The notes beneath the pieces were generated by a model, which was not told where the DNA came from, did no database searches, and saw nothing but the letters and a program-made list of their open reading frames with translations. A stretch of DNA of 22,232 nucleotides from a virus (taxonomy: Duplodnaviria; Heunggongvirae; Uroviricota; Caudoviricetes): the IMG/VR virus record IMGVR_UViG_2703718827_000007. One strand, 5' to 3'. Both the position numbers and the translations under genes were made by a program. Of the stretch, positions 1,899-21,155 are shown piece after piece; position 1 is the first letter of the stretch; the number at the start of each line of letters is the position of its first letter.

Positions 1899-1977
1899 AC
1901 CTGAGTGCCCATTGGAAAACTGCTTGGGCCAATACCTTTATACACCAGCAGGTGGTGACGATGGGTGAGGATCAGGC

Positions 1978-3072: not shown

Positions 3073-3090
3073 CCATCCATGGCTAACCAG

Positions 3091-5196
3091 TTATTGAGAT
3101 TCTTTTTGTGATGCCTGTGCGACTCTGGTGAGCGATTGTGTGACCGTACTGATCGCTCTGTCATATGCTGTGCTACCTTTTGGCGTATTTGCCAGACGTA
3201 ACAAGGCATTTCGTATAACAGGGCTTTCGTATGCCTTCGCTGCTCCGCCTACGGCACCAGCAGCAGGAACAACAAACGCAGCCGTTTTTAGCATCCCCGC
3301 TAATACTGCTGCGTTTATGATGCCACCACCAACTAACAATCCATAAAGCTGCTGACCATTTAAGTTTTGAACGTTCGCTTTTGCCGCGTGTCTTGTATCG
3401 TTGAGGTATTTAATAACGCCGTCCAGTTCCTTTCCATGTACGCCTTTAAAGAAAGTTGCTGATTGCTTCCTGTTCCGGTGTAACGCATTAATAAACTTCT
3501 CAACACTGATATTTCCAGACGGATCAGTCGCCTTATCTACAGCATTCTGAACTATGGCTGCTCGTGCGTTTTGCCTACCATTGTCATCCAGAAGCCTGTA
3601 AAGCTGAGAACGTTCTGATGGGCTTTGGCTAAAAACGAGTTTTGTTACATCCTCAGGCGTGGCCTTGCCGCTGGCTATTGCCTTTTGAACGCGCGTTCTT
3701 CCCATCATGTCATTGAATTTAGACCATGAGCGATCAACCCTTGCCATATTAATGGCTTCGTCTGCTCCAAGATTTTTGGCTACGGCTTTTTTCATATCCG
3801 CCGTATATGCCTTGTAGATAATATCGCTGGCTTTCTGGAGCGTATCTTTATCAACAGTGTCAGATGACGCCATAAATCGCTTTCGAAGATCGGTTCTGTT
3901 TTCCCTCGCCAGACGCAGGTCATTTGGTCCGCTGGTGATATCGTCTTTAAATTGCTGCAAGACTTTTACCGCGGCTCTATCCTGAGATTTGCCCGGGCGG
4001 CTTAACACGGCAATCTGATTGTCGATAGCTTTTACCGTGTTTGAGAGATCGACAGGGGTATCCCCCATAGCGTCAATTATGCGGTTATATCGCTTTCCTG
4101 CTGCCTCAATGAATTTTTGTTGCCCTTTAGTCGCAGATTCATAAAGCTGTTTATCAGAAATGCCACCCAGACCATCGCTAAATGTTCTGACTAAATTTTC
4201 TCGTGCTTGTTGTTGATTCAGCCGATTCTTACCGGTTCCAAAAAAAGGAACTCTTTCGCCTAATGTCTGAGCCTGACTCTGCATAAAGGTTTTATCTTTC
4301 AGCATGTCACTGGTCATTAACGGCAGATTTCTTTCCGATGCAAAGTCGACAGCAGCCTTTGCTTCAGGCGACATATCACCACGAACAGCCCTCGAAACCG
4401 CACTCGCTGTATTTTCCAGCCCCTTACCAATACCACCAATGCCAGCAGAAATTACCGTTTGTAACGGATCAATATCTTCTCCACCAGCAAGGCTGGTGGC
4501 TCCCTGTAGTGCTAAATCTGTAGCTGCTGATTTTCCTATGGCACCAAGCACCGTTCCAGCCCTGCCCGCTGGTGTAAACGCCAACGCATTAGCAAGAAAC
4601 GAGGTCAGGTCTTGCGGTGATAAACCCGGCTTGTTCAGGGCATAATCACCTGATGGCAGAGAAACGATAGTATTCCCCTTCTCATCCTGCCTTAATGTCG
4701 CCCCCATTCCCTGAAGAATCTTTTCCTGAGACGCGTCAGAGCCGAAAAGTTGAGACCATCCAGCCTTTAGGGCATCCATGCTTAGTGAGTTCAATTCTGG
4801 GGCAGAGGCGACATTTTGCAGTCTCTCCATCTCTGGAGTCATTCGGCTTTCGCCTGTTATAGCATCGCGCATCGCAGCCCCAAGACTGGCTCCCTGTTCT
4901 GCTGAACGCTCAAGCCCCTCTCTTTGCTGAGTAGCTAACTTTGCATACCCTGACGCAAGAGAATTATCAGATGATGTATGTTGAATATTTTGAGTTGCTG
5001 ATTGGGATCGGTCTATTTCATTCGTTGATGGTAGTGGATAGGCAGCATAAAAAGCCTGCTTAGCCTGCTCTACACTTTCTCCGGCTTGCGGGGCCACGAC
5101 TTCATTGAAGTATTGCTCCTGAGCCTGCGCTTTTTGTTCTGGTGCTAACGCCTGATACTGTGGAGAGGCGATAACATCTTTCCATGCTTTAGCCAT
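3091..5196 (-). CDS. Hypothetical 701-aa protein: Ala/Gln/Gly-rich, predicted helical, with a C-terminal glycine-zipper hydrophobic hairpin
   Basis: Long ORF. ATG at 5196 is preceded by GGGGTGA and overlaps the upstream stop (TAATG). C-terminal LYGLLVGGGIINAAVLAGMLKTAAFVVPAAGAVGGAAKAY is a roughly 40-aa hydrophobic hairpin. No nucleotide-binding or catalytic motif recognised. Confidence 0.85.
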   Translation of the reverse strand: MAKAWKDVIASPQYQALAPEQKAQAQEQYFNEVVAPQAGESVEQAKQAFYAAYPLPSTNEIDRSQSATQNIQHTSSDNSLASGYAKLATQQREGLERSAEQGASLGAAMRDAITGESRMTPEMERLQNVASAPELNSLSMDALKAGWSQLFGSDASQEKILQGMGATLRQDEKGNTIVSLPSGDYALNKPGLSPQDLTSFLANALAFTPAGRAGTVLGAIGKSAATDLALQGATSLAGGEDIDPLQTVISAGIGGIGKGLENTASAVSRAVRGDMSPEAKAAVDFASERNLPLMTSDMLKDKTFMQSQAQTLGERVPFFGTGKNRLNQQQARENLVRTFSDGLGGISDKQLYESATKGQQKFIEAAGKRYNRIIDAMGDTPVDLSNTVKAIDNQIAVLSRPGKSQDRAAVKVLQQFKDDITSGPNDLRLARENRTDLRKRFMASSDTVDKDTLQKASDIIYKAYTADMKKAVAKNLGADEAINMARVDRSWSKFNDMMGRTRVQKAIASGKATPEDVTKLVFSQSPSERSQLYRLLDDNGRQNARAAIVQNAVDKATDPSGNISVEKFINALHRNRKQSATFFKGVHGKELDGVIKYLNDTRHAAKANVQNLNGQQLYGLLVGGGIINAAVLAGMLKTAAFVVPAAGAVGGAAKAYESPVIRNALLRLANTPKGSTAYDRAISTVTQSLTRVAQASQKESQ

Positions 5197-7711: not shown

Positions 7712-10468
7712 TCATTCTTCAGATGAGTTGTAATCTCCTGGCTGGTAATTGAGTACATAAACGTTTATTTGTCGTCCCTGAATACGTGGTGATTTTCTTT
7801 GGTATCCACGACCGCTGTTTGGTGGGGTTAGCATCCCGGCTTTTTTCAACACTTCAGCAAACTGTTTTGCGTTGAAACCACATGCGATCTCCTTTTCAAA
7901 TGTGGCCGGGAATGTGTAGAAAATCATTGGGCTTTCGTCATGTTCTCCACGCTGACGGTATCCGGCTAAATCTTTGATGGGCAAATCTGCCGGGCTGTAT
8001 GGAAATGGTGCAAAACGGCTAAGCCCATAGGCATTAAGAAATGCCTCCGTTTGTTCAATAATCTGCTGATGCTCTTTGTTACCTGTGCCGAACTCGCGCA
8101 ACCATGCGTTATAGCTGTGCTGTATCGCATCACGGCATGTCTGAGCATCCCAGCCTGTTACAACCTCGCCTAACAACAATGCGGCCTCCAGAATGGCAAA
8201 TCGCGCGGCTACACGGTGAACCTGCTCACCATAATCGGATGGGATCAGGCTTCTCCATCTGCTTTCGCAGTCACGAACAGTTTTAATAGCCTGTTGCTGG
8301 TGGTCTGCCAGCCATTTAATCCACTCACGCCCGGACGCGCCGTGGTGATGCTGGTAAGCGTCTTTCAGTGCGTCTGCGTGCTGTTTTCCGTTCTGGTAAT
8401 CGTGAAAGCGTACTGCTTTACTCAACGGAATATTCAGCAGTCGCACCAGTTGCCCGGCTTTGGTTTTTCGCCCGGAAGTAGCGATAAATGTTTCTAAATC
8501 CATTTCTCCGGTGCTGATTGCCACTGTACGCCAGCGTTTTAGATCCCGGTTTCCACCATCTTTAGCGCCTTGCAGTTTCCCTACACCGTTAAATAACGCA
8601 TAGGCAGACTGTGAAACACTGACAGGATCAGCGCCCTGACCAACTTCATCAAGCGGCATTAGTCCGTCATTGTGGGCGGCGGCTTCATTTGCCAGCCCCA
8701 GCGCGGTTCCGTACCACGTCAGCCGCAGTAAATCAGGGTTGCCGTATAAGCTGCTCGCCACGTTTGCCGTGGTGGTCTTACCTGCGCTCGACTGCTCATA
8801 GAAATGAATGCCGAACCCGTCAGCGCCCACCAGCCCAATCAATGGCGCTGCCAGTGCTGCGCCGATCCCGGTCATCATTGAATAGTTACCAAAGGCCAGA
8901 CGCGCCACGTTATCACGCCAGCTTTTCGCGCTCCCTGAGACGGTATATCCGGCTGCGGCTGAGCTTCTCCCGCTGAACAGCACAGGATTTTCAGGTGTTC
9001 CGATGATTTCCCCATCAGGCATGATGTACGCTCCGCATTGCCAGCCAGTGGCATGAGCAACACGCCACAATTCACGAGAGCCACTGCGTTGTAGCCAGTC
9101 TGCCAGTATTGCTCTGAGGCTGCTTTTGGTCGTGACATTTACCCCACCAGCTTTAAGTGTGCGCCATCCTTCACGTTCACCAATATCAGCCAGTGGAATG
9201 GCAGCGGTTGTCGGCGTTTCAGAACCAAACGACAGCCAGCGAAGAATGAGATACTGGTCTTTATCGTCTCTGCCAGTACCGATAACGCTTAACGGAGAAC
9301 ATAACCAGCTTTCGTTATTGATGATTTCTCCACTCTGGCTGTCAGCTCTCGGAGATACCCAATAAATACCATCCTCGCGGCTTTCTATTCTTGGTTTCAG
9401 TGGGTCGGTATCCATAACCTTAAAATCGCTTCCCTCAATGGTCTGTGGCTCCTGTTTCACGCCATTACCCTGTGGTTGGTACATTGACTTATTGAACGCT
9501 TCTGTGGCGCATTTAATGCCGTGTTTTTGGTGGTAATCATTCCAGTCTGCTTTGTGATCTGTCGGGGGTAATGCCACCCATCCAGAAACAGATAAAGCTG
9601 CCTTTTCTGCTGCTATTCTCCCCGTGTTTTGTCTTCCTTCGCTGTGGTCGTTATCCGCAGCAATGATGATTTGTGCTGAAGGAAATTTATCCCGCAGTAC
9701 CTGGGCGACATATAACAGGTTCCCGGCATCAATCGCCGCCACTGTCAGCGCCTCTGGACGAATTAAATGGGCAGATAATGCCGTTGCCAGCCCTTCTGCG
9801 ATTAAGATGCTCTGTGTTGTTTCTGGTGCGTTTATGGCGTGATATGCCCCCCGCTTTGCTGAACCTGTCAGGAGTCTTTTTTCACCATGTGAGGTAATAG
9901 TCTGTGCTGCTGTTACTGCGCCGGATTTATCCACCAGCGCCAGCAACAGAGATCCATCGGGCAACACGGGGAATGTAAAATCACCTACCCCTTTCGCAAC
10001 CAGATAATCAGATTTGCCGTTTACAGCCTTTCTGCGCATGTCATCAAACTGACGGGAAAACGTATCCCGTCTTTGCTGTTCGTCCTTCTCTGCCCTTTTC
10101 AGGCGCTCCTGTTCGCGTCGCTGGCGCTCGGTTTCCAGTTGTTCCCGTTTCTGGCTGGTGGCTTCTGGTGTTTCCGTTGTCCGGTAATCAATACCCAGAA
10201 CATCAGCGGCAAGAAGCGCCGCCTCTGTTGTGTCGCAGTTATTTACGCGTTTAATTAAATCCAGCCCATCACCAGCGCCGCACTGATTACAGATGAAGCT
10301 ACCGCGCCCGTTGTCATCGAACCGGAATCGATCTTTGCCCCCACATGCAGGGCAGGGAGCATGACGGCGCGGAGAGTCAGGGACATTTATGTTCAGGCAG
10401 CCCAGCACATGAGGCCAGTTGTTTTCAGACGCACTGATAACCTGACGGATAAGATCAATGTTTCGCAT
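7712..10468 (-). CDS. P4 alpha-like DNA primase-helicase (zinc ribbon + TOPRIM primase + P-loop helicase + C-terminal DNA-binding region), 918 aa
   Basis: N-terminal zinc ribbon CPACGG...FICNQCG; TOPRIM-like motifs (EGLATALS, IIIAADNDHSEG); Walker A-like SSAGKTT. ATG at 10468 preceded by a GGGGG stretch. Confidence 0.9.
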   Translation of the reverse strand: MRNIDLIRQVISASENNWPHVLGCLNINVPDSPRRHAPCPACGGKDRFRFDDNGRGSFICNQCGAGDGLDLIKRVNNCDTTEAALLAADVLGIDYRTTETPEATSQKREQLETERQRREQERLKRAEKDEQQRRDTFSRQFDDMRRKAVNGKSDYLVAKGVGDFTFPVLPDGSLLLALVDKSGAVTAAQTITSHGEKRLLTGSAKRGAYHAINAPETTQSILIAEGLATALSAHLIRPEALTVAAIDAGNLLYVAQVLRDKFPSAQIIIAADNDHSEGRQNTGRIAAEKAALSVSGWVALPPTDHKADWNDYHQKHGIKCATEAFNKSMYQPQGNGVKQEPQTIEGSDFKVMDTDPLKPRIESREDGIYWVSPRADSQSGEIINNESWLCSPLSVIGTGRDDKDQYLILRWLSFGSETPTTAAIPLADIGEREGWRTLKAGGVNVTTKSSLRAILADWLQRSGSRELWRVAHATGWQCGAYIMPDGEIIGTPENPVLFSGRSSAAAGYTVSGSAKSWRDNVARLAFGNYSMMTGIGAALAAPLIGLVGADGFGIHFYEQSSAGKTTTANVASSLYGNPDLLRLTWYGTALGLANEAAAHNDGLMPLDEVGQGADPVSVSQSAYALFNGVGKLQGAKDGGNRDLKRWRTVAISTGEMDLETFIATSGRKTKAGQLVRLLNIPLSKAVRFHDYQNGKQHADALKDAYQHHHGASGREWIKWLADHQQQAIKTVRDCESRWRSLIPSDYGEQVHRVAARFAILEAALLLGEVVTGWDAQTCRDAIQHSYNAWLREFGTGNKEHQQIIEQTEAFLNAYGLSRFAPFPYSPADLPIKDLAGYRQRGEHDESPMIFYTFPATFEKEIACGFNAKQFAEVLKKAGMLTPPNSGRGYQRKSPRIQGRQINVYVLNYQPGDYNSSEE

Positions 10469-10480
10469 TCTGGCCCCCGT

Positions 10481-11083
10481 TTAGTGCGTCACTGGTGCTT
10501 CTGGGATGCCGTTTTCGTTTAGTTCGGCAATAAAGCTGTTGTGAAGATCGGCAAGCACTTCTCGCCCAAACGAAGTGAGTGTTCCCTGTTCGACATCGAA
10601 CATGTTGCTGTAAAAAATGATGGCATTCTTTGTTCCGACATCAACACCATATTTCTCGATCATTGCGCCCTCAATGTTGTTTGCCATAGCGAGGCGCTCT
10701 GCTACTGGATACAGCGGCATGGCGACGATGCCATTGGAATAAACAGAAACCACGGAATGATTGCCACTGTCATCAATAATGCTGACGGTGCCGTTTTCCT
10801 TTCTCATTTCATTGATGAATGCTGTTGCTATCAGCCAGCGCCACATAATCACGTGATGCTGTGATGTGTAATCGAAATATCCCTGGTTGCCGCCACTGGC
10901 AATAGCGAGATGTATAAACATGCCTTCATCTGGTTTATCGTCATAATCCCCGGCATCCAGACGATTTACGGCATCAATATATGAGACGGTCTCAACGCGT
11001 TCTGTCATGCCATCGTTGCTGCGGTGCATGATGTTTACGCCGTCAGGCGTTGCTTCTGCATGGAAGGTTAAGAAATTATTCAT
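10481..11083 (-). CDS. Hypothetical protein, 200 aa
   Basis: ATG at 11083 overlaps the stop of the upstream ORF (ATGAATAA). Located immediately upstream of the primase-helicase in the same operon. Confidence 0.6.
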   Translation of the reverse strand: MNNFLTFHAEATPDGVNIMHRSNDGMTERVETVSYIDAVNRLDAGDYDDKPDEGMFIHLAIASGGNQGYFDYTSQHHVIMWRWLIATAFINEMRKENGTVSIIDDSGNHSVVSVYSNGIVAMPLYPVAERLAMANNIEGAMIEKYGVDVGTKNAIIFYSNMFDVEQGTLTSFGREVLADLHNSFIAELNENGIPEAPVTH

Positions 11084-11297
11084 GTTTCGCCTCGCCTGAA
11101 TGATTCTGTAACTCATATTTGCCCAACAATTCGTCTGCTTCCTGAATAGCTTCTGGTACGCCATTGAGCAGTGACATAACCGCGCCAATCATTAACTTGT
11201 CTCTGTTGCTGGGGCTGGCCCCTTCAAGCCAGAACCCTAAAACAGTCTGAACCTGTTCGATGCGACATTGCGCTTCAATGAGCTGGATGTTGGTCAT
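11076..11297 (-). CDS. Hypothetical small protein, 73 aa
   Basis: ATG at 11297 overlaps the upstream stop (ATGA), indicating translational coupling. Confidence 0.55.
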   Translation of the reverse strand: MTNIQLIEAQCRIEQVQTVLGFWLEGASPSNRDKLMIGAVMSLLNGVPEAIQEADELLGKYELQNHSGEAKHE

Positions 11298-11557
11298 TTC
11301 GCACTCTCCACATCGATTAAACTGATATCTATCAGGGAGGTAACTTTTTGTAGCCAGCTATTGATTACTGTCGCCTGTTCCCCTCCCACCGAGGGAATAA
11401 TCTCATTCATCACATGAACCAGACCTGTGCGCGCTCTGGTAAGCCGTTCAGTCGCGCAATCTGCGGGAGTGAATGTGTCTGGATATGGCTCTTCGCGCCC
11501 CAGCAATGATTCAATTTCCAGCTCACACGGATGACGATAAATTAAGTTGATATTCAT
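11294..11557 (-). CDS. Hypothetical small protein, 87 aa
   Basis: ATG at 11557 overlaps the upstream stop (ATGA). Confidence 0.55.
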   Translation of the reverse strand: MNINLIYRHPCELEIESLLGREEPYPDTFTPADCATERLTRARTGLVHVMNEIIPSVGGEQATVINSWLQKVTSLIDISLIDVESAK

Positions 11558-11748
11558 TTTTCACCCCCAAGAATTACCAGCTCGGCACGGGCATCGTTAA
11601 CCAAAGATGAGCACGCTTTAATCGCATCCACGACATCAGCAGCGTCCATTTCTTCAGCCGAAAGACTGACAGCAACCAGGACAGCCGCTGCTTGCTCGAT
11701 TAATTGAAGTGCGGACGTAAGGCGAGGGGTATTAATTGAGTTATTCAT
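11554..11748 (-). CDS. Hypothetical small protein, 64 aa (ORF track lists the longer 11554-11805 version)
   Basis: ATG at 11748 ([10 protein letters not shown]...) overlaps the stop of the upstream frame (ATGAATAA) and follows a G-rich stretch. Confidence 0.5.
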   Translation of the reverse strand: MNNSINTPRLTSALQLIEQAAAVLVAVSLSAEEMDAADVVDAIKACSSLVNDARAELVILGGEK

Positions 11749-12808
11749 TGGTTGCCCCCGTTTTGCATGGCATTTGTCCACCTTCCAGCAGGAAATGAAC
11801 GTCACGAACGGCGAGATCCAATATCGCGAGTAACGCCTTCAGTTTTTCGTCTCGTGAGGGAGAGTTGCTCACCAGAATGTCATTAATCACTTCTGTCAGT
11901 GTGATGATCTGGCTTGTGCGTTCGAGGGGATCCATATGCACATCGTAGGTTTTAATCATGTGCCACCTCCATGCGGATACGACCAGCAAAAAAGCAGACG
12001 TGATCGCGCACCAGAGAACGGCGAGCATCGCGTTCAGACTCGGCAGCAATATGATGAATTTTGGCGGTAATTGTCGGGCAATCGCGGCGAACTGCGGCGA
12101 TAATCCAGATAAATTGCGGTTTTTGGGTAGGGGTAGTAGCCAGCATGTGGCAGCCTCCATTCGATAGCATGTAACGCTACCACCGGAAACGCCAATTTCG
12201 CTGGTGGTAGCCCAGACAGGGTTGGCGTAACCGGCTCGAATGGATACCGGCGCTTCCGAAGAAGCCCCTGCCTGAGCCACCATTGATTGACAAAGGCGCT
12301 GGATTATACACCAACGCCCAAAAAATGGGTGAGTCAGACCTACGACATAAAAAAAGACGCTCGGCGCGTCATATGTCGCCATTCGATTTACCAGGACGCC
12401 AATCCCGGCACCCGTTTTATGAGGTGCCTTATAACCATAAACCGTGTTGCCGCATAACGGCAAGCTCTTTTTTATGGACTCCGAAAACTCACTATTGGAA
12501 GAACCAGAAGCACAGTACATCGCGCTCATTTCGTTAACGTCACGCGCGTGGACGAAGGTTTTTGTGGAGTCACTACGCGAGCAGAGAAAGCCATCTACGA
12601 CCAGAAATTCTCTGGCGCAGCCGCTGACCTTCTCAACGCTAACACCATCGACCGTAATTTCTGACATAGTTAAGGCATCCGCTCCTACCACCAGCAAATG
12701 ATAAACTTTGCTTGTATCTGCTGTATTAATGCCTGACTTTGCTGTCATATTGCTGGATTTTGGCGACATACCAGCCAGTGAAAATGTCTTCTTCTGGGCG
12801 GTTAGCAT
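11741..12808 (-). CDS. Hypothetical protein; 355-codon open frame with ambiguous internal organisation
   Basis: ATG at 12808 overlaps the stop of the 60-aa gene (ATGCTAA). The N-terminal two-thirds looks protein-like; the middle (about 11960-12170) is Leu/Pro-rich and looks out of frame. A strong internal start (GGAGGTGGCAC-ATG at 11958) would give a 72-aa product, and an alternative-frame ORF at 11952-12170 has its own GGAGG-ATG. Possibly a frameshifted gene or two to three genes. Confidence 0.4.
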
Positions 12809-12984
12809 TTGTTAACCTCCGCGAACTCCTTCATGAAACGTGCCAGCGGTTGTACGCATGGCGATTGATACCCGTCGCGATAAAACGTCACTCGGTTGTG
12901 AGACACGCTTTCGACAGTAACGAGTGCTCCGTGGGCATCTTTGTAGCGTTTTTGAGGTTGTGGTGTTCCTGTCGGCTTAAACAT
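12802..12984 (-). CDS. Hypothetical small protein, 60 aa
   Basis: ATG at 12984 preceded by GGAGG, 3 nt after the stop of the 277-aa gene. The ORF track extends it to 13071, overlapping the upstream gene. Confidence 0.45.
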   Translation of the reverse strand: MFKPTGTPQPQKRYKDAHGALVTVESVSHNRVTFYRDGYQSPCVQPLARFMKEFAEVNKC

Positions 12985-13810
12985 GGACCGCCTCCAGACG
13001 CTTAGCGAGCCAGCGTTGCGACAGGCGGGTGAGTTCTCCTTTGCGCTGCTCATATTCCATGCCCATATCAATTAACGTGATATTGGTGCTTTCGAGATAT
13101 GAGAGGTGCTCAAGCTGTTCTGCGTTCATATGGTCGCGAGGTTCGCCAGAATAGCCATTTATCCGCGCCCACTGCTTAGCAGTTAGCCCACCAAGAACGA
13201 TACGAGAAATCATATTGCTCTCGTTTGTGTAGTGGTGTTGCTGCGTCGTTTTCCCCATCTCGGCACGGGCCATATTCAGCGCATCGCACATTGGCTTAAA
13301 GTTGTTTGCGGCACTGATACGGGCTTTTAGCTGGCGACGATAGCGGGCGGCGATTTCAGGCACGCTACGCTGTAATTCTTCCTCGCACTGGATGAAATAA
13401 CGGCGGATAGCGCGCCCCTGATCATTGCGTTCGATCATTGCCAGTTCTTTCGCCATTCCGACACTTAACAGATAGTCTTTGCCGGGTCTTCCAGACTGCT
13501 TAATCTTGCTGTAAGCCGCGCCATTCGGGATTTTCCCCAAATTTGGGGAAATAGTTTTATGGACTGAGTAATCGTGCCCAATGGTGAAGTCATATTCAGA
13601 GATGCGATCAGTGATCCATGTAGAGAAGTCTTTTCCCACGCCCAACGCTTTGTGTAACGCTTTTGCGCTAACAATATTGGTTTCACGCCCACCGATATGA
13701 CCAGGAATAACCGGGACAATTGCGGCAAATTCATTACCGTTAATTGTGCCCAGAGAGGCGTTCAGATGAGGGGCAGCCTCAGAAATTAATCTGCTTTTTT
13801 CGATGTTCAT
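12977..13810 (-). CDS. Prophage protein, 277 aa, possibly antirepressor/KilA-C-like
   Basis: ATG at 13810 preceded by GGAG. Segments (NIVSAKALHKALGVGKDFSTWITDRI, GRPGKDYLLSVGMAKELAM, RRYFIQCEEEL) are reminiscent of phage antirepressor-type domains; recollection only. Confidence 0.6.
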   Translation of the reverse strand: MNIEKSRLISEAAPHLNASLGTINGNEFAAIVPVIPGHIGGRETNIVSAKALHKALGVGKDFSTWITDRISEYDFTIGHDYSVHKTISPNLGKIPNGAAYSKIKQSGRPGKDYLLSVGMAKELAMIERNDQGRAIRRYFIQCEEELQRSVPEIAARYRRQLKARISAANNFKPMCDALNMARAEMGKTTQQHHYTNESNMISRIVLGGLTAKQWARINGYSGEPRDHMNAEQLEHLSYLESTNITLIDMGMEYEQRKGELTRLSQRWLAKRLEAVHV

Positions 13811-13822
13811 TTTCAGTCTCCG

Positions 13823-14254
13823 TTAGGCGGCGTTAAACGCGTCCGGGTAGAGTTTCAGAATGTCGGCAATTTCCTGCTGAGAAAGTCCGTTGTGATCATT
13901 TATGTTCGCAAGATGGTTAATATGAGTGATCACTTTCAGAACATCACCACGGCAGGAGAAACGGTAGCGAAGGTGTGTTCCGATACCATCAGGATTCTTT
14001 TCGTCGATACGCTCCAGAGTGATTCCGAGCTGGCGTTCTAACTCTGTTGCATAGTTACGACCAGAAGACAGACGGCAGTAGCGAAGAATGTCATTTTCTG
14101 TCCATCCCTCTATACCAGTACGCAGCATATAGACTCGGGCACGATGCTTTTTCGGCGTGCGCTTTGGTGCTTGAAGGGATTTTGTCAGGGGCGTAACATC
14201 AGATACGCGAATATCTGAATTAGCCGCCTGTAATGGGCGGTTTTTCTTTTCCAT
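13823..14254 (-). CDS. Hypothetical prophage protein, 143 aa
   Basis: ATG at 14254 shares its A with the alpA stop (TGATG). No family recognised. Confidence 0.6.
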   Translation of the reverse strand: MEKKNRPLQAANSDIRVSDVTPLTKSLQAPKRTPKKHRARVYMLRTGIEGWTENDILRYCRLSSGRNYATELERQLGITLERIDEKNPDGIGTHLRYRFSCRGDVLKVITHINHLANINDHNGLSQQEIADILKLYPDAFNAA

Positions 14255-14457
14255 CAGGCCACCTCGTCTCTAGATTCTAATATACACTTCTCAATCCATT
14301 CATCTATTTCAGACTCAACAAAAGCAATTGCCCGACTTCCAATTTTTACCTGTTTAGGGAACCTCCCCTGACTAATAAGACGATAAATCCATGCTTTGCT
14401 ATAACCAGTTCGCCTTTGAACTTCAGAGAGACGAATTAATGAATTGTAATTAGCCAT
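14254..14457 (-). CDS. alpA: AlpA-family phage transcriptional regulator (excisionase-like winged HTH), 67 aa
   Basis: MANYNSLIRLSEVQRRTGYSKAWIYRLISQGRFPKQVKIGSRAIAFVESEIDEWIE is a classic AlpA/Xis-type HTH. First gene of the operon downstream of int. Confidence 0.8.
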   Translation of the reverse strand: MANYNSLIRLSEVQRRTGYSKAWIYRLISQGRFPKQVKIGSRAIAFVESEIDEWIEKCILESRDEVA

Positions 14458-14543
14458 TTATTAATATCCTGTACTAATGACGCAATAACCCCCTCCTGCA
14501 ACGAATGGCGAGAGTTTTATTTGCGTCAAATGTCGAATACGCC

Positions 14544-14578
14544 AAAGACCACAATATGAAAAACATATTGCGGTCTTT
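14544..14578. promoter_or_regulatory. 15-bp inverted repeat (operator or RNA hairpin) in the int-alpA intergenic region
   Basis: AAAGACCACAATATG-aaaaa-CATATTGCGGTCTTT, 14/15 complementary, about 90 nt upstream of the alpA start. Not followed by a T-run on the minus strand, so more likely an operator than a terminator. Confidence 0.3.
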
Positions 14579-14884
14579 TATAAAAGATAGTCAGATTGTT
14601 TTGGTTTGTTTGCTCCACAAGGGTAGAGCTACCCTGCATTTCGGCAGGATCACGCTATTAGGCGTGACATCCAGTAGTTTTAAAGAACAATTGCGCTTTG
14701 TCAGCGCCAAAGCCTGTTAAAGAACATTCCGCTTTTCAGCAGCGTAGAAGGCTCAATACACCTTCGTTTATAAAAGAGCGATTGCCCTTCTCCAGGGCTA
14801 ACTGTTAAATAGCAATCCTCTGTGAGTTTTTATCAATCTACTCCCCTATACTTTAGTAAACCTCTGTATACTTGTCCAGTTGTT

Positions 14885-16099
14885 TCATGCGTGTTTTTCA
14901 AACACCATATGCACCACATTTCCGCCATGCTCGAGAGAATCCATATAGTCGGCATACCATTGAAGCATCTCCCGCCGTCCATCCAGATATTGCGCATGGT
15001 TGTATGTGCCACGAATTGAGTTCTTATCAACGTGAGCGAGCTGCGTTTCTATCCACGCGGTGTTATAGCCCTGCTCATGCAAAATCGTGCTCATAGTGTG
15101 TCGGAACCCATGACCAGTTACACGTCCAGCGTAGCCAATGCGCTTAAACACTTGGTTTATGCTGGCCTCACTCATTGTTTTCCTTGGATCATTGCGCCCG
15201 GGAAACATAAGAGGGTAATTGCCTGTTATTTCTCTAATCTTCCCAATAAGCGAAAGAGCCTGCTCAGACAATGGCACAATATGAGGCCGCCGCATTTTCA
15301 TACGTGAAGCGGGTATCTCCCATATAGCCTTGTTGAAATCAATTTCATCCCATAATGCGCCACGTAGTTCGCCAGTTCGCAAGCCGGTGATAATCAGTAG
15401 GCGAGCCGCCATAACAACCAATGCGCTTCCTGAGTAACTGGATAATGCCTTGAAAAAATCAGGTAATTCTTTGGTCGTAAGGAAAGGGTAATGATTAGAT
15501 TCATGGCCTTGCATCGCGCTAGTAAGGTCTGGTGCAGGGTTATACTCTGCGCGACCAGTGACTATTGCATAGCGGAAAACTTCCCCGCACCGCTGCCTCA
15601 CTTTTTTGGCTTTTTCTGTCGCACCGCGCCCCTCGATGCGCCGCAGCACATTCAGAAGTTCAAGTGGTTTGATTTCGGCGATTGGTTTTTTGCCAATGTA
15701 AGGGAACACATCTTTGTTGAAGGCTTCGAGGATGTCTGAAGCATAACCAGCAGACCATTTTTTTAATTTGCTGCTGTGCCACTCAAGGGCAATATCTTTG
15801 AAGGTGTTGTTTAACTGCGTTTCCCGGGCAATCTTTTCCTCTCGTTTCGCTTCCATCGGATCGATACCACCAGCGATACCTCTTTTCGCATCTTCACGTT
15901 TTGCCCGAGCATCGGCTAGAGTAACCTCAGGATACACACCTAGTGCCAATAGCTTCTCTTTACCAGCTACACGATATTTAAGTCGCCAGTATTTACCTCC
16001 ATTAGGTTTTACCAAGAGATACAAACCGCCACCATCGGCCAGCTTGTAAGCCTTCTCTTTTGGCTTGGCTGTGTCTATTTGACGGGCATTGAGTTTCAC
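14885..16099 (-). CDS. int: P4-type tyrosine integrase (site-specific recombinase), 404 aa
   Basis: N-terminal arm-binding-type region (KLADGGGLYLLVKPNGGKYWRLKYR) and C-terminal catalytic region with the conserved HGFRHT and terminal Tyr context. GTG start at 16099 preceded by GGAGGT. Adjacent to the tRNA-Thr 3' fragment. Confidence 0.9.
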   Translation of the reverse strand: MKLNARQIDTAKPKEKAYKLADGGGLYLLVKPNGGKYWRLKYRVAGKEKLLALGVYPEVTLADARAKREDAKRGIAGGIDPMEAKREEKIARETQLNNTFKDIALEWHSSKLKKWSAGYASDILEAFNKDVFPYIGKKPIAEIKPLELLNVLRRIEGRGATEKAKKVRQRCGEVFRYAIVTGRAEYNPAPDLTSAMQGHESNHYPFLTTKELPDFFKALSSYSGSALVVMAARLLIITGLRTGELRGALWDEIDFNKAIWEIPASRMKMRRPHIVPLSEQALSLIGKIREITGNYPLMFPGRNDPRKTMSEASINQVFKRIGYAGRVTGHGFRHTMSTILHEQGYNTAWIETQLAHVDKNSIRGTYNHAQYLDGRREMLQWYADYMDSLEHGGNVVHMVFEKHA

Positions 16100-16700: not shown

Positions 16701-19700
16701 TTATCTCGTAAAATTAGTTTTATGACTTCCTGTTAGCTGACTGTCTTCATAATAAAATGCCCCACTAAACTCCTGTCGACCATAATGATGACTTGATGTG
16801 AGTGAGCCCCCTATAACACCTTTTTCACCTAATAATGTCCAAACGATTTCAAAACCATTGTCCCTTAACATTGTTAAAAATGGTTCTTTTTTAACAAGTA
16901 GATGCGGCTTTGAAGCATATACAGCTTCAGCTGCAAAGCAAACCATAGTTCCATTTTCATCATTGAAGCTACCCTCTACTTCCCCATTTTTTAAGCCCAT
17001 CTTTTCAAAGATTAAGTTGCTAGGCTTCAAAAAATTCAAAGCTTCTATTTTTGATTTGTCGAACTCCTCTCCCCACAAATAATTAATCGAAGTGACACTA
17101 ACATCAGCTATCTTAGCTCCAGACTCCCGGTCTGTTACCGAAGTCCAGTCAGAACCACCATAATAATCTGATTTAAAAGACTTAAATGCTTCGGACCAAT
17201 AGTACTCCCTATTAAATAATTGGTATCTATCAGTACATTCCGGCATCCACCTGCCCATAAAGTCTTGAGCTATTGCCCAACATCTAAAATTTTCAAATTC
17301 TTGAACTTTAACGATATAACTTCTGATCTGATACCAAACCTCTTTTCGTGGGTGCCCCCAATCATCGTTTCCAATAATTTTTGGTTCTTTCCATGATGGA
17401 TAACTTTCTAATACTATCCATTCATCACCATTATCATCTTTAACTTCAATCAAAGCATATGGATTAGTTATAGTAGTAGAGCTTTTAACCCAGTCTTCAT
17501 TAGAGCAAGTCCAATCAAACACTTCATCATTAAGCCACCACATTTCTTTATTGCTTATTTTTTTCGTCCCAGTTTCTTTAAGTAAGATAGTGGGATCTAT
17601 ATCTCTTACGTAAGGCTCCCATGGCCCTTGGTATGGGTTTTCCTTTCGGTCGTCACCATAACCTTCAAAACGAATAAAATTATCGGCTAGCCTTGCCATG
17701 TATTCATAATAAGCAATCCATTGGTATTTTTTACCAATCCGTTCTTGGAATTCCTCTCTACGTCCACGTCCAGTTCCTATTTGTTGATCAAAATCACCAT
17801 GCTTCTCCGGATCCCAACCAAGTTCCAGAACACGATTGAATATAAATTGTTGAGCTAGTCGAAGATCAAAGTGTTTATCAGTTTCCAGCAGATTATTATT
17901 ATGATCTAGGTATGGCTCTATTTCATTTTCAAACTCACTTAACAGATCGTATGACAATGAATTCTTAAATAGCTTCTTGCTCGCCTTTATTTCTTCCTGT
18001 GCTTTTCTACCGACCACGCTACCAAATTTAATTCCTTCACATTTATCATCATAAATGAAAGGATCTGTAGCATCATACAATTTTTTTTGTTGGTCAGTTA
18101 GTTTACATTTGAAAGTTTTAAAAATTTTCTTACGGTCAATAGGAGTTTCATTAAACTTGCAACCAGACCAATCAGAATGATTGTAATTTGTTCCAATGGT
18201 ATATCGTGAAAAGTCACCACCTCCCATAATCGAGCTCCAGAGTGCCCGATAAGGTTCTTTATTATAAAGAGACTCTAGTTCCTCTTTTGGAGGAATCTCG
18301 TCAGGCCAAATGCTGTTGTAGGGTGGCCTAGTCTTGGATAATTCAATACTTTCAAGTTCCAGTCCAAGATGATTAGCAAATTCAATAATCTCTCTCGCAT
18401 AATCTCTAAGTAATATATTTGGATACACAGACTCAGAACAAAATACCTTTTGGTAAACAGTTTCGGCTAAATATTTTAGTTCTTTAATATTATCAGTTCG
18501 CAATGTACAACCCAATGCAACTGCAAATATTCTTTCCCAAACGTAAGGATCATTTACACCATAAAACTTATCAATTATTTTTCTCAATACAGGAATTCTT
18601 GGCTCGAGTAAACTCACTAAAGCCTTGGTTGAGCAATCTCGAAGTTCTCGGTTACTAGAAGTTAAAAACCAGCATAAACTAGTTGCAACTAGCTCGATTG
18701 ACTCATCCGAAACGAAGCTTTTATCTGTTCTGCCCCATGCCCAATCGATTAGATGCCTAAATGCTGAGTCTTCACTATATTTATATTTAAGTTTTGTAGT
18801 CCAACACGAATCTCGATTTCCCAAAGAGTAATCTTTTAGCCAATCATGCAAGAAATTAGCATTAAAGGGATGGTCAACTAAACCTGAAATAGAGATCACT
18901 GCCTCGAGAAAATGATCAAAACTACCTTTAAATTTAAAAACATGTTCATTGATGAAAGGTCTGATTTTTTCGAAATCAATAGCCTTAATATCTCGCCATA
19001 TCAAGCTATCAATAAAGGCTTCTAGTAATTTATGATTATTGCTGAACTCCGGCAGAAATTCATAAAGCTCTTTTCCATACTTTTCTGGCAATTGAATAGA
19101 AAGCGCCTCAACTATTCCCGAGTTTGTATAAAAATCACATTCATCATGAAAATATTTTTTCAGACGACCATCTGACTTAAATTCATTTTCGATATTTTCA
19201 ACATCATTTAATAAAAAATTAACGGTTAAATGATCATCAAACCTTTCAAAAGCCACATGAACTACTTCCTCAGTAGCATTATCATTATTTCTCACTATGC
19301 CTTTAGTCAATAATCCTTCGTCAATCAAGGCGCTGAGGAAATTTTTATCTGTAACATAATCATTAACTACAGATTGAACCACTGAGTGAGCATCTCTAAG
19401 TGAAATACTATTACTACCAATCTCTAATTTGAATTTTATGATTTCGTTGAGAGCATCTTTTACAAGAGGAAAACTGGGATCGAAATCATATTTTTTTGGC
19501 GATGCCAATGATTTATTCACCCCTTCCACTAAAAAGTTAAAAATATTTGAAATCCCATTAAACCCAACAGGTACTTTGGTTAAACCATTTTTCTTAATGC
19601 CTTCACACAATAACTTAAGAAATAGAGGGTTTTTAAACTCTGGATTAAGATTAGGTGATGAAGGCCTCTCTATATTGTAATAATCATAAAATAGACTAAC

Positions 19701-21155
19701 CGCTTCTAACTCAACATTCTGAAATCCAATATGTTCATGAATTTCAAAATTATTTCGCTCAACATTCTCATGTGAAATTGTTACATTTCTATATGTTGTT
19801 CTGACTGACATTATCAGACCAAGCCATTCAAAGCATCTGATTTCATCGACAAAACTGTTAATATTGTCATTCCAGAATTTATTTCCATTACCTTCATTAA
19901 TAGCATCAATGAAAACCAAGACTCTTTTTCCTGTTTTTTTGCCATATAAATTCAGTTTTTCCAGGAATTCACGAGAAGTGATTTTAAGCTGTAATCTCTT
20001 GAAGATCTGTGACCATGGAGATTCATCTGAAGTAAGTTGTTGCCCTAGTATGAGTAGAGAAGGATATCCAGAAGCAATTCGATTTTTAATCACATCAGCC
20101 AGTAAATGAGACTTACCAATTCCAGCTTTTCCTTCGAGAAGTAAGAATGGGTTGTTAGCCAACTTTACTGTTGTTGAATTAATGAATGTACGTAATTCAT
20201 TGCACGCATAGTCAAGTTCCCGAAGCATTCGCAGAGTAGATGAATACTTATCACTGTAATGCTTGGTTTCACCTACTTGTTCTGACTTTTCTCGGAGTTC
20301 CCACAATATTGATTCCGCTCCGCCAATAGCTGTCTGGCAGCTGTCAACATAGTTATTAAATTTATTTATAGGAATTTGATCTAATTTAGAAAAATTAAGC
20401 TCTTGATATATATCCGCAATTTGATTTAAGGACTCGTCTATTACAGATAATTCTGAGTAAATTACATCGCAACTATGTAACCTCTTTCTAGTCATCAGAA
20501 AATTATCTATATGTGAGTAAAATATTTTAGCAAAATCATCAGTTCTACCGAGACCATCAAATATCTCTGCTATTTCTAGCTTTACGTTGAGTTCGGGTGT
20601 GTATCGGCCTCCCAAGTCAGCTATTGCTTGACTATTTTTTTCATTTAACCAACCATCACTCAAGTGAAAAGTTAGTTTGTCATCTATAGACCGCAAAATA
20701 AGTTTAACTTGAATAAGCTCTTCATTAATATCGAATATTTTTTCTTTATACGTTTCTTCGATATGTAGCTTTTTTAACTTCGAACAATTATTGATTTTTA
20801 ACGATAACATCTCATAAAAAAGGCTGAGTTGTTGTTGAGTTGGGGGGGTGATGCTTGGATATTCTTTGAACTTGTCTAATAATATCCCTTTGTCAGGGAA
20901 CTCTTTAAACAAGATGTGTTCATTCAACATCTCAAACAATGGTTCAGAATGATAAAATGGAATTGCTCCACTTTCTACTGGATATGTTTCTTCAAACTCA
21001 ATTGCCGTCTCTTCAATTAGTTGATATAATCTATCCACATATCTTTTTTGGGGGAATAATGCTTTCTTAATACAACCATATCCTTCTTGAGAGATGAATT
21101 GATCAATAAGTTTAGTTGCTACATAAGTTGCCACTGTAATTGATATAGGTTCCAT
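16701..21155 (-). CDS. NACHT/STAND-like P-loop NTPase, 1484 aa, with unassigned N-terminal (about 335 aa) and C-terminal (about 950 aa) domains; candidate antiphage defence protein
   Basis: Walker A GKAGIGKS (residues 342-349, nt about 20109-20132); Walker B-like VLVFIDAINEG (residues 412-422), close to the NACHT hhhhD-x-h-[DN]-E pattern. The gene is markedly AT-rich compared with the P4-like region and sits between the att remnant and an invertase gene. Confidence 0.85.
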   Translation of the reverse strand: MEPISITVATYVATKLIDQFISQEGYGCIKKALFPQKRYVDRLYQLIEETAIEFEETYPVESGAIPFYHSEPLFEMLNEHILFKEFPDKGILLDKFKEYPSITPPTQQQLSLFYEMLSLKINNCSKLKKLHIEETYKEKIFDINEELIQVKLILRSIDDKLTFHLSDGWLNEKNSQAIADLGGRYTPELNVKLEIAEIFDGLGRTDDFAKIFYSHIDNFLMTRKRLHSCDVIYSELSVIDESLNQIADIYQELNFSKLDQIPINKFNNYVDSCQTAIGGAESILWELREKSEQVGETKHYSDKYSSTLRMLRELDYACNELRTFINSTTVKLANNPFLLLEGKAGIGKSHLLADVIKNRIASGYPSLLILGQQLTSDESPWSQIFKRLQLKITSREFLEKLNLYGKKTGKRVLVFIDAINEGNGNKFWNDNINSFVDEIRCFEWLGLIMSVRTTYRNVTISHENVERNNFEIHEHIGFQNVELEAVSLFYDYYNIERPSSPNLNPEFKNPLFLKLLCEGIKKNGLTKVPVGFNGISNIFNFLVEGVNKSLASPKKYDFDPSFPLVKDALNEIIKFKLEIGSNSISLRDAHSVVQSVVNDYVTDKNFLSALIDEGLLTKGIVRNNDNATEEVVHVAFERFDDHLTVNFLLNDVENIENEFKSDGRLKKYFHDECDFYTNSGIVEALSIQLPEKYGKELYEFLPEFSNNHKLLEAFIDSLIWRDIKAIDFEKIRPFINEHVFKFKGSFDHFLEAVISISGLVDHPFNANFLHDWLKDYSLGNRDSCWTTKLKYKYSEDSAFRHLIDWAWGRTDKSFVSDESIELVATSLCWFLTSSNRELRDCSTKALVSLLEPRIPVLRKIIDKFYGVNDPYVWERIFAVALGCTLRTDNIKELKYLAETVYQKVFCSESVYPNILLRDYAREIIEFANHLGLELESIELSKTRPPYNSIWPDEIPPKEELESLYNKEPYRALWSSIMGGGDFSRYTIGTNYNHSDWSGCKFNETPIDRKKIFKTFKCKLTDQQKKLYDATDPFIYDDKCEGIKFGSVVGRKAQEEIKASKKLFKNSLSYDLLSEFENEIEPYLDHNNNLLETDKHFDLRLAQQFIFNRVLELGWDPEKHGDFDQQIGTGRGRREEFQERIGKKYQWIAYYEYMARLADNFIRFEGYGDDRKENPYQGPWEPYVRDIDPTILLKETGTKKISNKEMWWLNDEVFDWTCSNEDWVKSSTTITNPYALIEVKDDNGDEWIVLESYPSWKEPKIIGNDDWGHPRKEVWYQIRSYIVKVQEFENFRCWAIAQDFMGRWMPECTDRYQLFNREYYWSEAFKSFKSDYYGGSDWTSVTDRESGAKIADVSVTSINYLWGEEFDKSKIEALNFLKPSNLIFEKMGLKNGEVEGSFNDENGTMVCFAAEAVYASKPHLLVKKEPFLTMLRDNGFEIVWTLLGEKGVIGGSLTSSHHYGRQEFSGAFYYEDSQLTGSHKTNFTR

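Follow-up and report, generated by a model that had tools for sequence, protein, structure and literature searches.

An "ash family" reading frame spanning two regulatory RNA genes in an EcCIMP1-type chromosomal island

The Coupled Gene Chain

The window (the whole stretch of DNA analyzed, 22,232 nucleotides; IMG/VR record IMGVR_UViG_2703718827_000007) carries a long chain of coupled genes, and all of the features described here lie on its minus strand. At the head of the chain is an alpA-type gene for a helix-turn-helix protein of 67 aa (14254..14457; Pfam Phage_AlpA, E = 7e-20), the counterpart of which in P4 is orf88. It is followed by a 143-aa gene (13823..14254), taken from the ORF list and annotated in RefSeq homologues, whose product matches no family in Pfam, PHROGs, or NCBIfam. 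Next are a 277-aa AntA/AntB-type antirepressor-like gene (12977..13810; Pfam AntA, E = 1.4e-21) and a 60-aa DUF4222 gene (12802..12984; Pfam DUF4222, E = 1.9e-24; pN/pS 0.15). These lead into an ORF of 355 codons (11741..12808), the counterpart of P4 eta, which matches Pfam Phage_ASH and is annotated in RefSeq as "ash family protein." Below it lie p64 (64 aa, 11554..11748) and p87 (87 aa, 11294..11557), both from the ORF list, p73 (73 aa, 11076..11297; phrog_20558), and p200 (200 aa, 10481..11083), a member of phrog_1515 (E = 1e-47), a family without assigned function. The chain's last gene is a 918-aa primase/helicase (7712..10468) with the Pfam domains Zn_Ribbon_Prim, Toprim_3, and DUF927. 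In Pfam, PHROGs, and NCBIfam, the N-terminal 122 aa of the long ORF and the 72-, 64-, and 87-aa proteins match either nothing or families without a function.

From alpA (14457) to the primase (10468), each junction is an overlap of 1–8 nt or a gap of 12 nt. The alpA and 143-aa genes share 1 nt in TGATG, and a 12-nt gap separates the latter from the antirepressor-like gene, which overlaps the DUF4222 gene by 8 nt (ATGTTTAA). The DUF4222 stop and the start of the long ORF overlap by 7 nt in ATGCTAA, and the long ORF has GGAGG at 12820-12816 ahead of its ATG at 12808. It hands over to p64 through the 8-nt overlap ATGAATAA; p64 and p87, and then p87 and p73, are joined by ATGA, ATGAATAA recurs between p73 and p200, and a 12-nt gap precedes the primase. 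The junction sequences bear out the view of an earlier note on this DNA that every junction from the 277-aa gene to the primase overlaps or nearly abuts, and the chain also reaches upstream to alpA.

By its sequence, the island is a phage-inducible chromosomal island (PICI) of the EcCIMP1 type. EcCIMP1 is the PICI of Escherichia coli MP1; it is mobilized by phage Kapi1, and helper induction and packaging have been shown for it (PMC11773190). The two share gene order and the same 355-codon ORF; identity is 96% over the segment that runs from int through the 200-aa gene and 98.9% for the primase. In EcCIMP1 the immunity cassette is of another type (L005), the late zone differs, and two additional small genes precede the primase. 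The zone order in the window by Pfam (int, alpA, Bro zone, primase, late zone) is that of Gram-negative PICIs, and psu, sid, and delta are absent from the 10 large ORFs, part of the window's total, that were scanned with Pfam. The label "P4-like" given in the earlier note fits the regulatory module but not the island itself, which is 96–99% identical to EcCIMP1. The EcCIMP1 paper annotates an "Ash family protein," and a search of it for the term "Icd" found none (PMC11773190).

Two RNA Genes Within the Long ORF

The middle of the long ORF holds two RNA genes, on the same strand and significant in Rfam, that the earlier note missed. One is an isrK or P4 seqA-like leader RNA (12350..12427; RF01394, 67.1 bits against a gathering threshold of 50). 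It includes two C4 targets, ATTGGCGT (12403-12396) and TCGAATGG (12386-12379), and an intrinsic terminator with its stem at 12370-12356 and a T7 run at 12355-12349. The other is a C4 or P4 CI-like antisense RNA (12200..12287; RF01695, 79.5 bits against a gathering threshold of 45) that covers model positions 1–87 of 87. Two segments serve in recognition: the loop TCCATTCGA (12244-12236) and ACGCCAA (12228-12222). RNAs of the C4 kind are released from a longer transcript by processing, with a role for RNase P in P1 and P4, and act as repressors in vivo. The 65-nt spacer from the isrK terminator to C4 (12284..12348) may form a hairpin with a TATAAT loop, although this is weakly supported. Compensatory changes occur in 6 of 16 isrK pairs and in 16 of 28 C4 pairs (18 sequences).

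A putative internal promoter similar to P4 PLE lies just upstream (12434..12463). Alignment with the P4 arrangement TTGCCT-18-TATAGT places a −35 element TTGCCG at 12463-12458, an 18-nt spacer, a −10 element TATGGT at 12439-12434, and a start near 12427. The sequence is conserved across loci; it agrees with the consensus at only 8 of 12 positions, and a strict promoter scan of the window did not report it.

The isrK and C4 pair is found upstream of icd, the Icd/Kil-like gene described below, in P4, in EcCIMP1, and in 18 of 19 loci from other genera. The 19th, L027, has C4 only; its ORF of 656 codons includes C4 and has neither an isrK nor an Ash match. For c4-a1b1, the window match reaches only 17.9 bits against a gathering threshold of 46.7, and there are RF03163 matches in the related loci L021 and L023. 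The int-alpA RNA (RF02996) is not in the window and is present upstream in L013, L021, L023, L025, and L026.

The icd Gene and the 72-aa Gene

Two further genes occupy the last part of the long ORF. The Icd/Kil-like gene (icd, 64 aa, 11952..12146) uses the +1 frame of the long ORF and scores 71.3 bits with NCBIfam NF033153 (cutoff 25). A tblastn search with its product finds the P4 kil region at 43% identity (E = 7e-9). The gene has a pN/pS of 0.35. Icd/Kil proteins inhibit cell division or kill the cell on expression, and the product here may be toxin-like. The alternative-frame ORF reported earlier (12170-11952) is present; its probable start is the ATG at 12146, 7 nt past GGAGG, and PGAP sometimes uses 12170. 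The 72-aa gene (11741..11959) is in the frame of the long ORF and is called as a separate protein in public data. Its pN/pS is 0.26, compared with 1.25–3.5 for the other frames. It has GGAGG at 11970-11966, and its ATG at 11959 overlaps the icd stop as ATGATTAA. Homology of this gene to P4 epsilon was considered and ruled out, with no similarity found.

The earlier note had drawn attention to two similar ribosome-binding motifs that start alternative products, one of them out of frame. Both exist, within 1–2 nt of its estimates, at 12144-12160 (ATGGAGGCTGCCACATG) and 11957-11972 (ATGGAGGTGGCACATG); they precede the icd ATG at 12146 in the +1 frame and the 72-aa ATG at 11959 in the long frame. 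The pattern was matched in none of 100 window shuffles, a result that adds little beyond confirming the motifs because the pattern was taken from those two sites. The idea that the motifs are duplicates with a common role does not hold. The first overlaps a C4 target, and its flank covaries with the C4 loop. The second is the coupling Shine–Dalgarno at the 3′ end of icd and is conserved in all genera; as a further C4 target it was rejected, being the same in all three immunity types described below while the C4 loop changes. The suggestion of overlapping genes stands: The alternative frame is a conserved Icd/Kil-like gene and the second motif starts a real gene.

The frame of icd relative to the long ORF varies among related loci. 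It is +1 in the window and in 7 of 19 related loci (8 of 20 scored), and in all 8 the long ORF stays open, either to the downstream gene or, in L022, to just past icd. In the other 12 of the 19, as in P4 and two lambdoid phages, the internal Icd-like or other gene that follows the conserved GGAGGCTGCC is in frame with the long ORF. The spacer from the Shine–Dalgarno to the ATG is ACATGC in the window type and ATCA or GCTATGC elsewhere.

C4 Pairing and Immunity Specificity

Exact complements of the C4 segments define a downstream target region (12144..12195), the equivalent of P4 seqC or P1 a2/b2. It consists of TTGGCGT at 12195-12189 and TCGAATGGA at 12164-12156, and the latter overlaps the icd Shine–Dalgarno GGAGG at 12158-12154. 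The C4 loop of the window is the exact complement of TCGAATGGA at the icd Shine–Dalgarno and of TCGAATGG in isrK. The two-segment complementarity of the RF01695 family, with the downstream site over the ribosome-binding site of the first gene, is present here and covaries in 16 specificity types.

The 16 distinct C4 cores form more stable duplexes with their own targets (averages of −36.5 and −38.6 kcal/mol) than with non-own targets (−24.9 and −27.7 kcal/mol). The second value of each pair is for the icd side. For the two target sets, the best-ranked target is the core's own in 14 of 16 and 13 of 16 cases. Three immunity types occur among otherwise near-identical E. coli copies, and the loop and both targets change together.

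Why the Long Frame Is Open

The frame of the long ORF is indeed open over 12808-11741, and the Pro/Leu-rich middle noted earlier is real: The icd-overlapping part is 30% Leu plus Pro, compared with 14% across the whole ORF. The frame takes in the putative internal promoter, both RNA genes, icd (read in the +1 frame), and the 72-aa gene (read in the long frame). It starts upstream of the predicted internal promoter, is coupled to the preceding gene, and is open across seqA/isrK and cI/C4, as expected of an eta-type ORF, but the kil-like gene is not nested in frame in the window. The most probable explanation is that the long ORF is a real, selected reading frame, for which translation matters and the protein product does not.

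A rival explanation is that a true regulatory protein of the Ash family, part of the Bro network, is made from the ORF, with amino acids that matter and RNA genes that merely overlap. Annotation as a 355-aa ash family protein in RefSeq, a PF10554 Phage_ASH match of 105.3 bits (gathering threshold 26; residues 124-232, nt 12439-12113), a strong Shine–Dalgarno, an ORF intact in thousands of sequences, and the treatment of Phage_ASH as a Bro-network domain (PMC10111431) all favor this view. The sequence belongs to PF10554 by HMM score, but its amino acids do not show the purifying selection expected of a protein domain. In every locus, P4 Eta included, the Pfam domain maps exactly onto isrK plus C4, and the amino acids of the Ash part evolve neutrally, with a pN/pS of 0.92 compared with 0.35 for icd. 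Variable sites lack codon periodicity (34:30:32). The parts ahead of the Ash domain (28–132 codons) share neither length nor sequence between genera. The C-terminal third of the ORF is the +1 frame of icd. A functional Ash protein is therefore improbable. The opposite possibility, that the frame is accidental, never translated, and open only since conserved RNA sequences chance to be stop-free there, is judged equally improbable. Much of the stretch is constrained as RNA with a G+C content of 0.52–0.59, and in shuffled sequence at least one of the three frames is open in 6–47% of cases. However, from isrK to icd the same frame is stop-free in 22 of 22 loci and two lambdoid phages, a 24 of 24 count that overstates the independent observations because related loci share ancestry, and none of the 44 alternative forward frames is open; in shuffled sequence a given frame is open with a frequency of 0.02–0.18. 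In the divergent, unconstrained isrK–C4 spacers, stops are absent from the long frame but number 19 and 12 in the other two, and the isrK-to-C4 distances (102, 105, 129, 132, 144, and 189 nt) are all divisible by three. The long-ORF ATG overlaps the stop of a sizeable upstream gene, whichever gene that is, in 18 of 22 loci. Public data contain few frameshifts at the T7 run, and the +1 frame of icd lacks stops in all 6 loci that use it, compared with 2 of 13 that do not (Fisher p = 0.001).

The earlier note also raised a frameshifted or decaying gene, and this reading is largely refuted. An ancestral ash–icd fusion resembling P4 eta/kil, disrupted by a change of 2 nt between the Shine–Dalgarno and the ATG, would fit the in-frame arrangement in P4, the 12 related loci, and the two lambdoid phages, the differing window spacer, and the occasional PGAP call of the ORF as a pseudogene. 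It is nevertheless very unlikely, since PGAP "pseudogene" records contain the same open 355-codon ORF, the out-of-frame arrangement recurs with the ORF open in every case, and purifying selection acts on both icd and the 72-aa gene. No break in the long ORF occurs in any of the 9 close E. coli copies or in any related locus examined, and intact forms fill protein clusters with 1393, 681, and 456 distinct sequences. A search with the N-terminal 122 aa finds close relatives only. Truncated forms make up small clusters (37, 45, 11, and 5 members, many of them contig-end fragments), and the point of divergence is in every case the T7 run of the isrK terminator or close to it. A last rival borrows the logic of Salmonella Gifsy-1, in which orf45 lies over a C4-like RNA and is translated and coupled to the next gene, and IsrK activates orf45–anrP translation (PMC4825925). 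By this logic, isrK would act in trans to unmask an internal ATG at 12283 and switch on the coupled genes, with C4 repression secondary. The conserved ATGGTGG at the 5′ end of C4 places this ATG in the long frame, and its geometry fits the orf45 AUGs (+107 and +119). The likeness extends to an isrK-family RNA with its own promoter (predicted in the window) and terminator and to an ORF across the C4-like RNA STnc1160 with conserved nucleotides, variable amino acids, and onward coupling (PMC4825925). In Gifsy-1, however, orf45 begins after isrK rather than upstream of the promoter, the antirepressor is downstream, and IsrK is described as a trans-acting activator. The ATG at 12283 also has no preceding Shine–Dalgarno, the hypervariable loop covarying with its targets is what a specificity-determining repressor would be expected to show, and the layout, from promoter through seqA-like leader, CI-like RNA, and kil-like gene to primase operon, agrees with that of P4 at every point. 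These observations leave the Gifsy-1 logic with little probability. The direction of regulation in the window is still not certain because the Gifsy-1 isrK RNA acts as an activator and not only as a target.

A Probable P4-Type Immunity Switch

The preferred reading, held to be likely, is that the region is the early operon of an EcCIMP1-type PICI under the control of a P4-type RNA immunity module. In P4, according to Forti 1999 as presented in PMC10111431, eta extends over the constitutive promoter, seqA, and cI, shows coupling with the alpA homologue, and prevents termination when translated. The window has the same order and geometry. An alpA-type gene comes before a coupled long ORF that crosses the predicted internal promoter; a seqA-like leader bearing a terminator and a C4/CI RNA follow, and GGAGGCTGCC lies under a target ahead of a Kil/Icd homologue. 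The next gene is reached through an 8-nt overlap, and the operon ends in a primase. The differences are that P4 kil is in frame within eta, whereas the window icd is +1 and the long ORF continues in frame into the 72-aa gene; that 127 codons precede isrK, compared with ~25 in P4; and that three extra genes (143 aa, AntA-like, and DUF4222) separate alpA from the ORF. In addition, the gene after icd is unrelated to P4 epsilon and the primase is of the DUF927 type. The immI system of P1 and P7 also has a C4-family RNA with two-segment recognition, targets upstream of and over the icd ribosome-binding site, an Icd-like first gene, and downstream translational coupling. Unlike immI, the window has its antirepressor-like gene upstream of the RNA module instead of downstream of icd, and small ORFs and a primase follow.

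In the repressed state, transcripts would start at isrK from the constitutive internal promoter (~12463-12434), and most would end at the isrK terminator or be processed into the ~88-nt C4 RNA. Through its two single-stranded segments, C4 would pair with the isrK sites and with the region just upstream of icd and mask the icd Shine–Dalgarno. If icd is not translated, every gene of the coupled chain as far as the primase would be silent, and by analogy with P4 premature (Rho-dependent) transcription termination would follow. On helper-phage induction, transcripts would come from the upstream alpA promoter, and ribosomes on them would enter the 355-codon ORF by stop–start coupling. These ribosomes would read across the terminator, C4, and the targets, melting structures and shielding the RNA, and would hand over at ATGAATAA toward the primase. 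Read-through translation probably overrides termination in this way, and P4 is likewise the model from which promoter use, C4 processing, termination, and override are inferred for this element. The P4 model may not transfer exactly because icd here, in contrast to P4 kil within eta, lies out of frame. A further point against the reading is the weak coding signal of the N-terminal 127 codons, whose pN/pS of 0.47 compares with 0.58 and 1.15 in the other frames.

A more tentative proposal, thought less likely to be right than wrong, is that the +1 position of icd separates antitermination from toxin production and that the Ash family is the neutral translation of two RNA genes. If so, the 2-nt difference between the Shine–Dalgarno and the ATG would let overriding ribosomes cross icd without making Icd. 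They would make an Ash–p72 fusion instead and pass straight into the replication genes, a separation that would be impossible with the in-frame eta/kil nesting of P4. The Pfam Ash frame would then be kept open solely for being translated.

Implications

The window carries a further example of the satellite P4-type RNA immunity switch, a kind of system that is already known. The analysis corrects the reading of a gene whose annotation varies across thousands of Enterobacteriaceae genomes between "ash family protein" and a pseudogene accompanied by an Icd-like gene. The conserved part of the "ash family protein" is a pair of regulatory RNA genes. Pfam PF10554 has served as a marker of P4 "epsilon" (PMC8628076); in fact it detects the RNA locus, and the reading of satellite census results is therefore affected. 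The immunity switch is now located in the EcCIMP1-type islands, a widespread and experimentally tractable family, with three interchangeable specificity cassettes in E. coli alone. Satellite-type loci from about a dozen enterobacterial genera, together with two lambdoid phages and P4, give comparative support for the idea from P4 that translation across RNA regulators serves as an override.

The gene chain and its long open frame

The chain opens with alpA (14457) and ends with the primase (start at 10468), and all genes of the region lie on the minus strand. alpA overlaps a gene of 143 aa by 1 nt (TGATG), a 12-nt gap leads to an AntA/AntB-type antirepressor-like gene, and ATGTTTAA joins this gene to a DUF4222 gene (pN/pS 0.15). 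The DUF4222 gene meets a 355-codon open reading frame (12808–11741), here called the long ORF, at ATGCTAA. Downstream, ATGAATAA joins the long ORF to a gene of 64 aa, ATGA stands at the junctions of this gene with one of 87 aa and of the latter with one of 73 aa, ATGAATAA recurs between the 73-aa gene and one of 200 aa, and a 12-nt gap precedes the primase. GGAGG followed by ATG is found at four consecutive genes of the chain. Inspection of the junctions and the frame bears out the chain of overlapping or abutting genes and the open 355-codon ORF described in the earlier note, as well as its Leu/Pro-rich middle (30% Leu+Pro where the long ORF overlaps the alternative frame versus 14% over the whole ORF). 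The two motifs combining a ribosome-binding site and a start codon that it reported are present at 12144–12160 and 11957–11972, 1–2 nt from the positions it gave; the two-motif pattern, itself derived from these two sites, had no occurrence in 100 shuffles.

Ahead of its primase, after the 200-aa gene, EcCIMP1 (L029, 21282–21987) has two additional small genes (~123 and ~113 aa), which are absent from the window at the corresponding gap (10469–10480). Two RefSeq records of the 87-aa protein (11294–11557; homologues from L003 and L008), WP_200986729.1 and WP_135129246.1, bear the name "nicotinic acetylcholine receptor subunit beta", an obvious name-propagation error.

Two RNA genes beneath the Phage_ASH match

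Only two Rfam matches in the window reach gathering score, and both lie within the long ORF and share its orientation: isrK (RF01394; 12427–12350, minus strand, 67.1 bits) and the C4 antisense RNA (RF01695; 12287–12200, minus strand, 79.5 bits). C4 has strong structural covariation, with compensatory changes in 16 of 28 pairs, and isrK has some as well (6 of 16). IsrK and P4 SeqA are structural homologues, and CI has two pairing partners, seqA on the upstream side and seqC on the downstream side (PMC4825925). The Pfam Phage_ASH match, residues 124–232 of the long ORF (nt 12439–12113), is exactly isrK plus C4. P4 Eta (199 aa) likewise has Phage_ASH over the P4 isrK and C4 matches, and in the 1984 P4 record the C4 match lies under a "putative ash gene". 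In every locus, P4 included (L009, 1303–1678), PF10554 coincides with translated isrK plus C4, and it lacks constraint at the protein level. This profile served as the "epsilon" marker in the detection of P4-like satellites (PMC8628076). PGAP labels the identical intact ORF in two ways (window 11741–12808; L002, L004, L006, L029), either as "ash family protein", leaving icd and the 72-aa gene at its 3' end (both described below) unannotated, or as "ash family protein, pseudogene, missing C-terminus" plus "Icd-like protein".

Directly 5' of isrK lies a promoter-like TTGCCG-18-TATGGT, which aligns with P4 TTGCCT-18-TATAGT; the string KKGLP...VYGYS in long ORFs is the translation of the promoter −35 and −10. 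A seemingly lineage-specific palindrome, TTGCCGTTATGCGGCAA at 12447–12463, overlaps the −35 of this putative internal promoter and is possibly an operator. The 65-nt spacer from the isrK terminator to C4 (12284–12348) contains a second T-run and a hairpin with a perfect TATAAT loop, kept in most loci with 65-nt spacers. Covariation supports this hairpin weakly (5 of 13 pairs compensatory); its role may be in processing or as a second promoter. The int-alpA RNA motif (RF02996) was not found in window positions 10400–15000, even at a permissive threshold; it is present 5' of the operon in L013, L021, L023, L025, and L026, near positions 50–450.

A frame under selection

The earlier note had left open a decaying or frameshifted gene, and truncated versions of the long ORF do occur, in clusters of 37, 45, 11, and 5 distinct sequences against full-length clusters of 1393, 681, and 456. 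Many members of the truncated clusters are contig-end fragments, and the complete truncated forms examined diverge mostly at the T7 run. The ORF is not decaying: the nine close copies, "pseudogene" records of PGAP included, all retain it at 355 or 342 codons. The comparison with homologues that the note proposed shows the same long frame open in all 22 loci: from the first base of isrK it has no stop through to the ATG of the downstream gene icd in 22/22, and the other two forward frames carry 1–7 stops each (0/44 open). Reverse frames are open across this stretch in 5/66 cases, and per-frame openness in its shuffles is 0.02–0.18. The isrK–C4 distance takes six values among the loci, every one a multiple of three, and the divergent spacers hold no stops in the long frame, compared with 19 and 12 in the two alternatives. 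Phages SfV and 118970_sal3 have annotated ORFs across isrK and C4 in the same frame. In 18/22 loci a substantial gene, of any identity, precedes the long ORF, and its stop overlaps the ORF start. The 19 loci from other genera were gathered with Icd alone as the query and were therefore sampled without bias toward an open upstream frame; 5' of icd, C4 is found in 19/19 and isrK in 18/19, L027 having C4 only. In L027 (Escherichia, 1766–3733), C4 and icd lie within an open frame of 656 codons that has neither an isrK nor a Phage_ASH match, which may be a different fusion architecture.

The Ash stretch of the long ORF has a pN/pS of 0.92, versus 0.35 for icd, and variable sites are spread evenly over the codon positions (34:30:32). 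The N-terminal 127 codons have a weak coding signal (pN/pS 0.47, the other frames giving 0.58 and 1.15). Since the frame is conserved across loci and the amino-acid sequence itself is not, the frame is under selection and its protein product is not, which is what the P4 eta model predicts. In the account of Forti et al. (1999) relayed by PMC10111431, eta extends over seqA, cI, and the constitutive promoter, contains kil nested within it, is coupled to the alpA homologue, and prevents termination when translated. Gifsy-1 orf45, which is translated and has conserved nucleotides and variable amino acids, fits the same pattern (PMC4825925); judged by geometry, it starts at the AUGGUGG conserved in C4.

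The part of the long ORF 5' of isrK varies from 28 to 132 codons among loci. Motifs recurring in these upstream parts, F-x-L-A-G-L and a repeated F-x-TST-R-x-REG (L017, 2365–2757; L014–L016; the N-terminal segment in the window), may reflect DNA or RNA repeats and not protein domains.

Antisense recognition and immunity types

The C4 loop TCCATTCGA (12244–12236) is the exact complement of two sites, TCGAATGG in isrK (12386–12379) and TCGAATGGA (12164–12156), which overlaps the GGAGG of icd. A second C4 segment, ACGCCAA (12228–12222), matches TTGGCGT at 12195–12189 and again inside ATTGGCGT (12403–12396) in isrK. Close E. coli copies carry three different cassettes at ~12150–12400 with near-identical DNA on either side, and in each cassette the C4 loop and both targets change jointly, with G:U wobbles at the upstream site. 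For 16 distinct C4 cores, mean duplex energies with their own targets are −36.5 kcal/mol (isrK site) and −38.6 kcal/mol (downstream site), versus −24.9 and −27.7 kcal/mol with other targets; the own target ranks top for 14/16 and 13/16 cores, respectively. The cassette is hypervariable, ~35% divergent from L005/L006 and L007/L008, and one type has a 39-nt in-frame deletion. Such hypervariability between near-identical flanks suggests that immunity cassettes are exchanged by recombination between islands.

The overlapping icd gene and the second motif

The alternative-frame ORF (12170–11952) of the earlier note proved to be icd, with its probable start at ATG 12146, encoding an Icd-like protein (NCBIfam NF033153, 71 bits) homologous to the 65-aa P4 Kil. 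In 12 loci, P4, and the two phages, the long ORF shares its frame with the gene starting after GGAGGCTGCC; in the window and 7/19 related loci this gene is in the +1 frame. For most of the latter, the window among them, what differs is the spacer from the Shine-Dalgarno sequence to the ATG (ACATGC versus ATCA or GCTATGC). Stops are absent from the +1 frame of icd in 6/6 distinct loci using +1 versus 2/13 of those that do not (p = 0.001, ignoring relatedness). In the window, the long ORF merges in frame into a 72-aa gene (11959–11741; pN/pS 0.26) that has its own Shine-Dalgarno sequence and ATG within the 3' end of icd. The second motif, at this start, is conserved in all genera and invariant with immunity type. 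A role as a C4 target was rejected on these grounds; being conserved across genera independently of immunity type, the motif is a coupling signal.

Island setting and proposed switch

Alongside alpA and a primase of the DUF927 type, the window has an integrase, a Bro-type zone, a P22-type injection protein, and PerC. Its int-to-primase stretch is 96–99% identical to EcCIMP1, a PICI mobilised by phage Kapi1, with the helper inducing its alpA promoter (PMC11773190). Two large ORFs, of 1484 aa (16701–21155) and 701 aa (3091–5196), have no Pfam match; the former probably lies outside the island, since it is beyond the end of EcCIMP1 similarity (~16310). Matches to isrK and C4 in PICI Bro zones were reported previously (PMC10111431).

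The data support a model in which a P4-type RNA immunity switch heads the replication operon. The analysis shows the RNA genes and their pairing, the conservation of the frame, and the neutral evolution of the protein; that the internal promoter is used, its RNAs are processed, and transcription terminates is inferred, as is the override. Ribosomes from the helper-induced alpA transcript would override the switch by way of the read-through ORF. The switch follows a familiar design, from which it departs modestly in structure.
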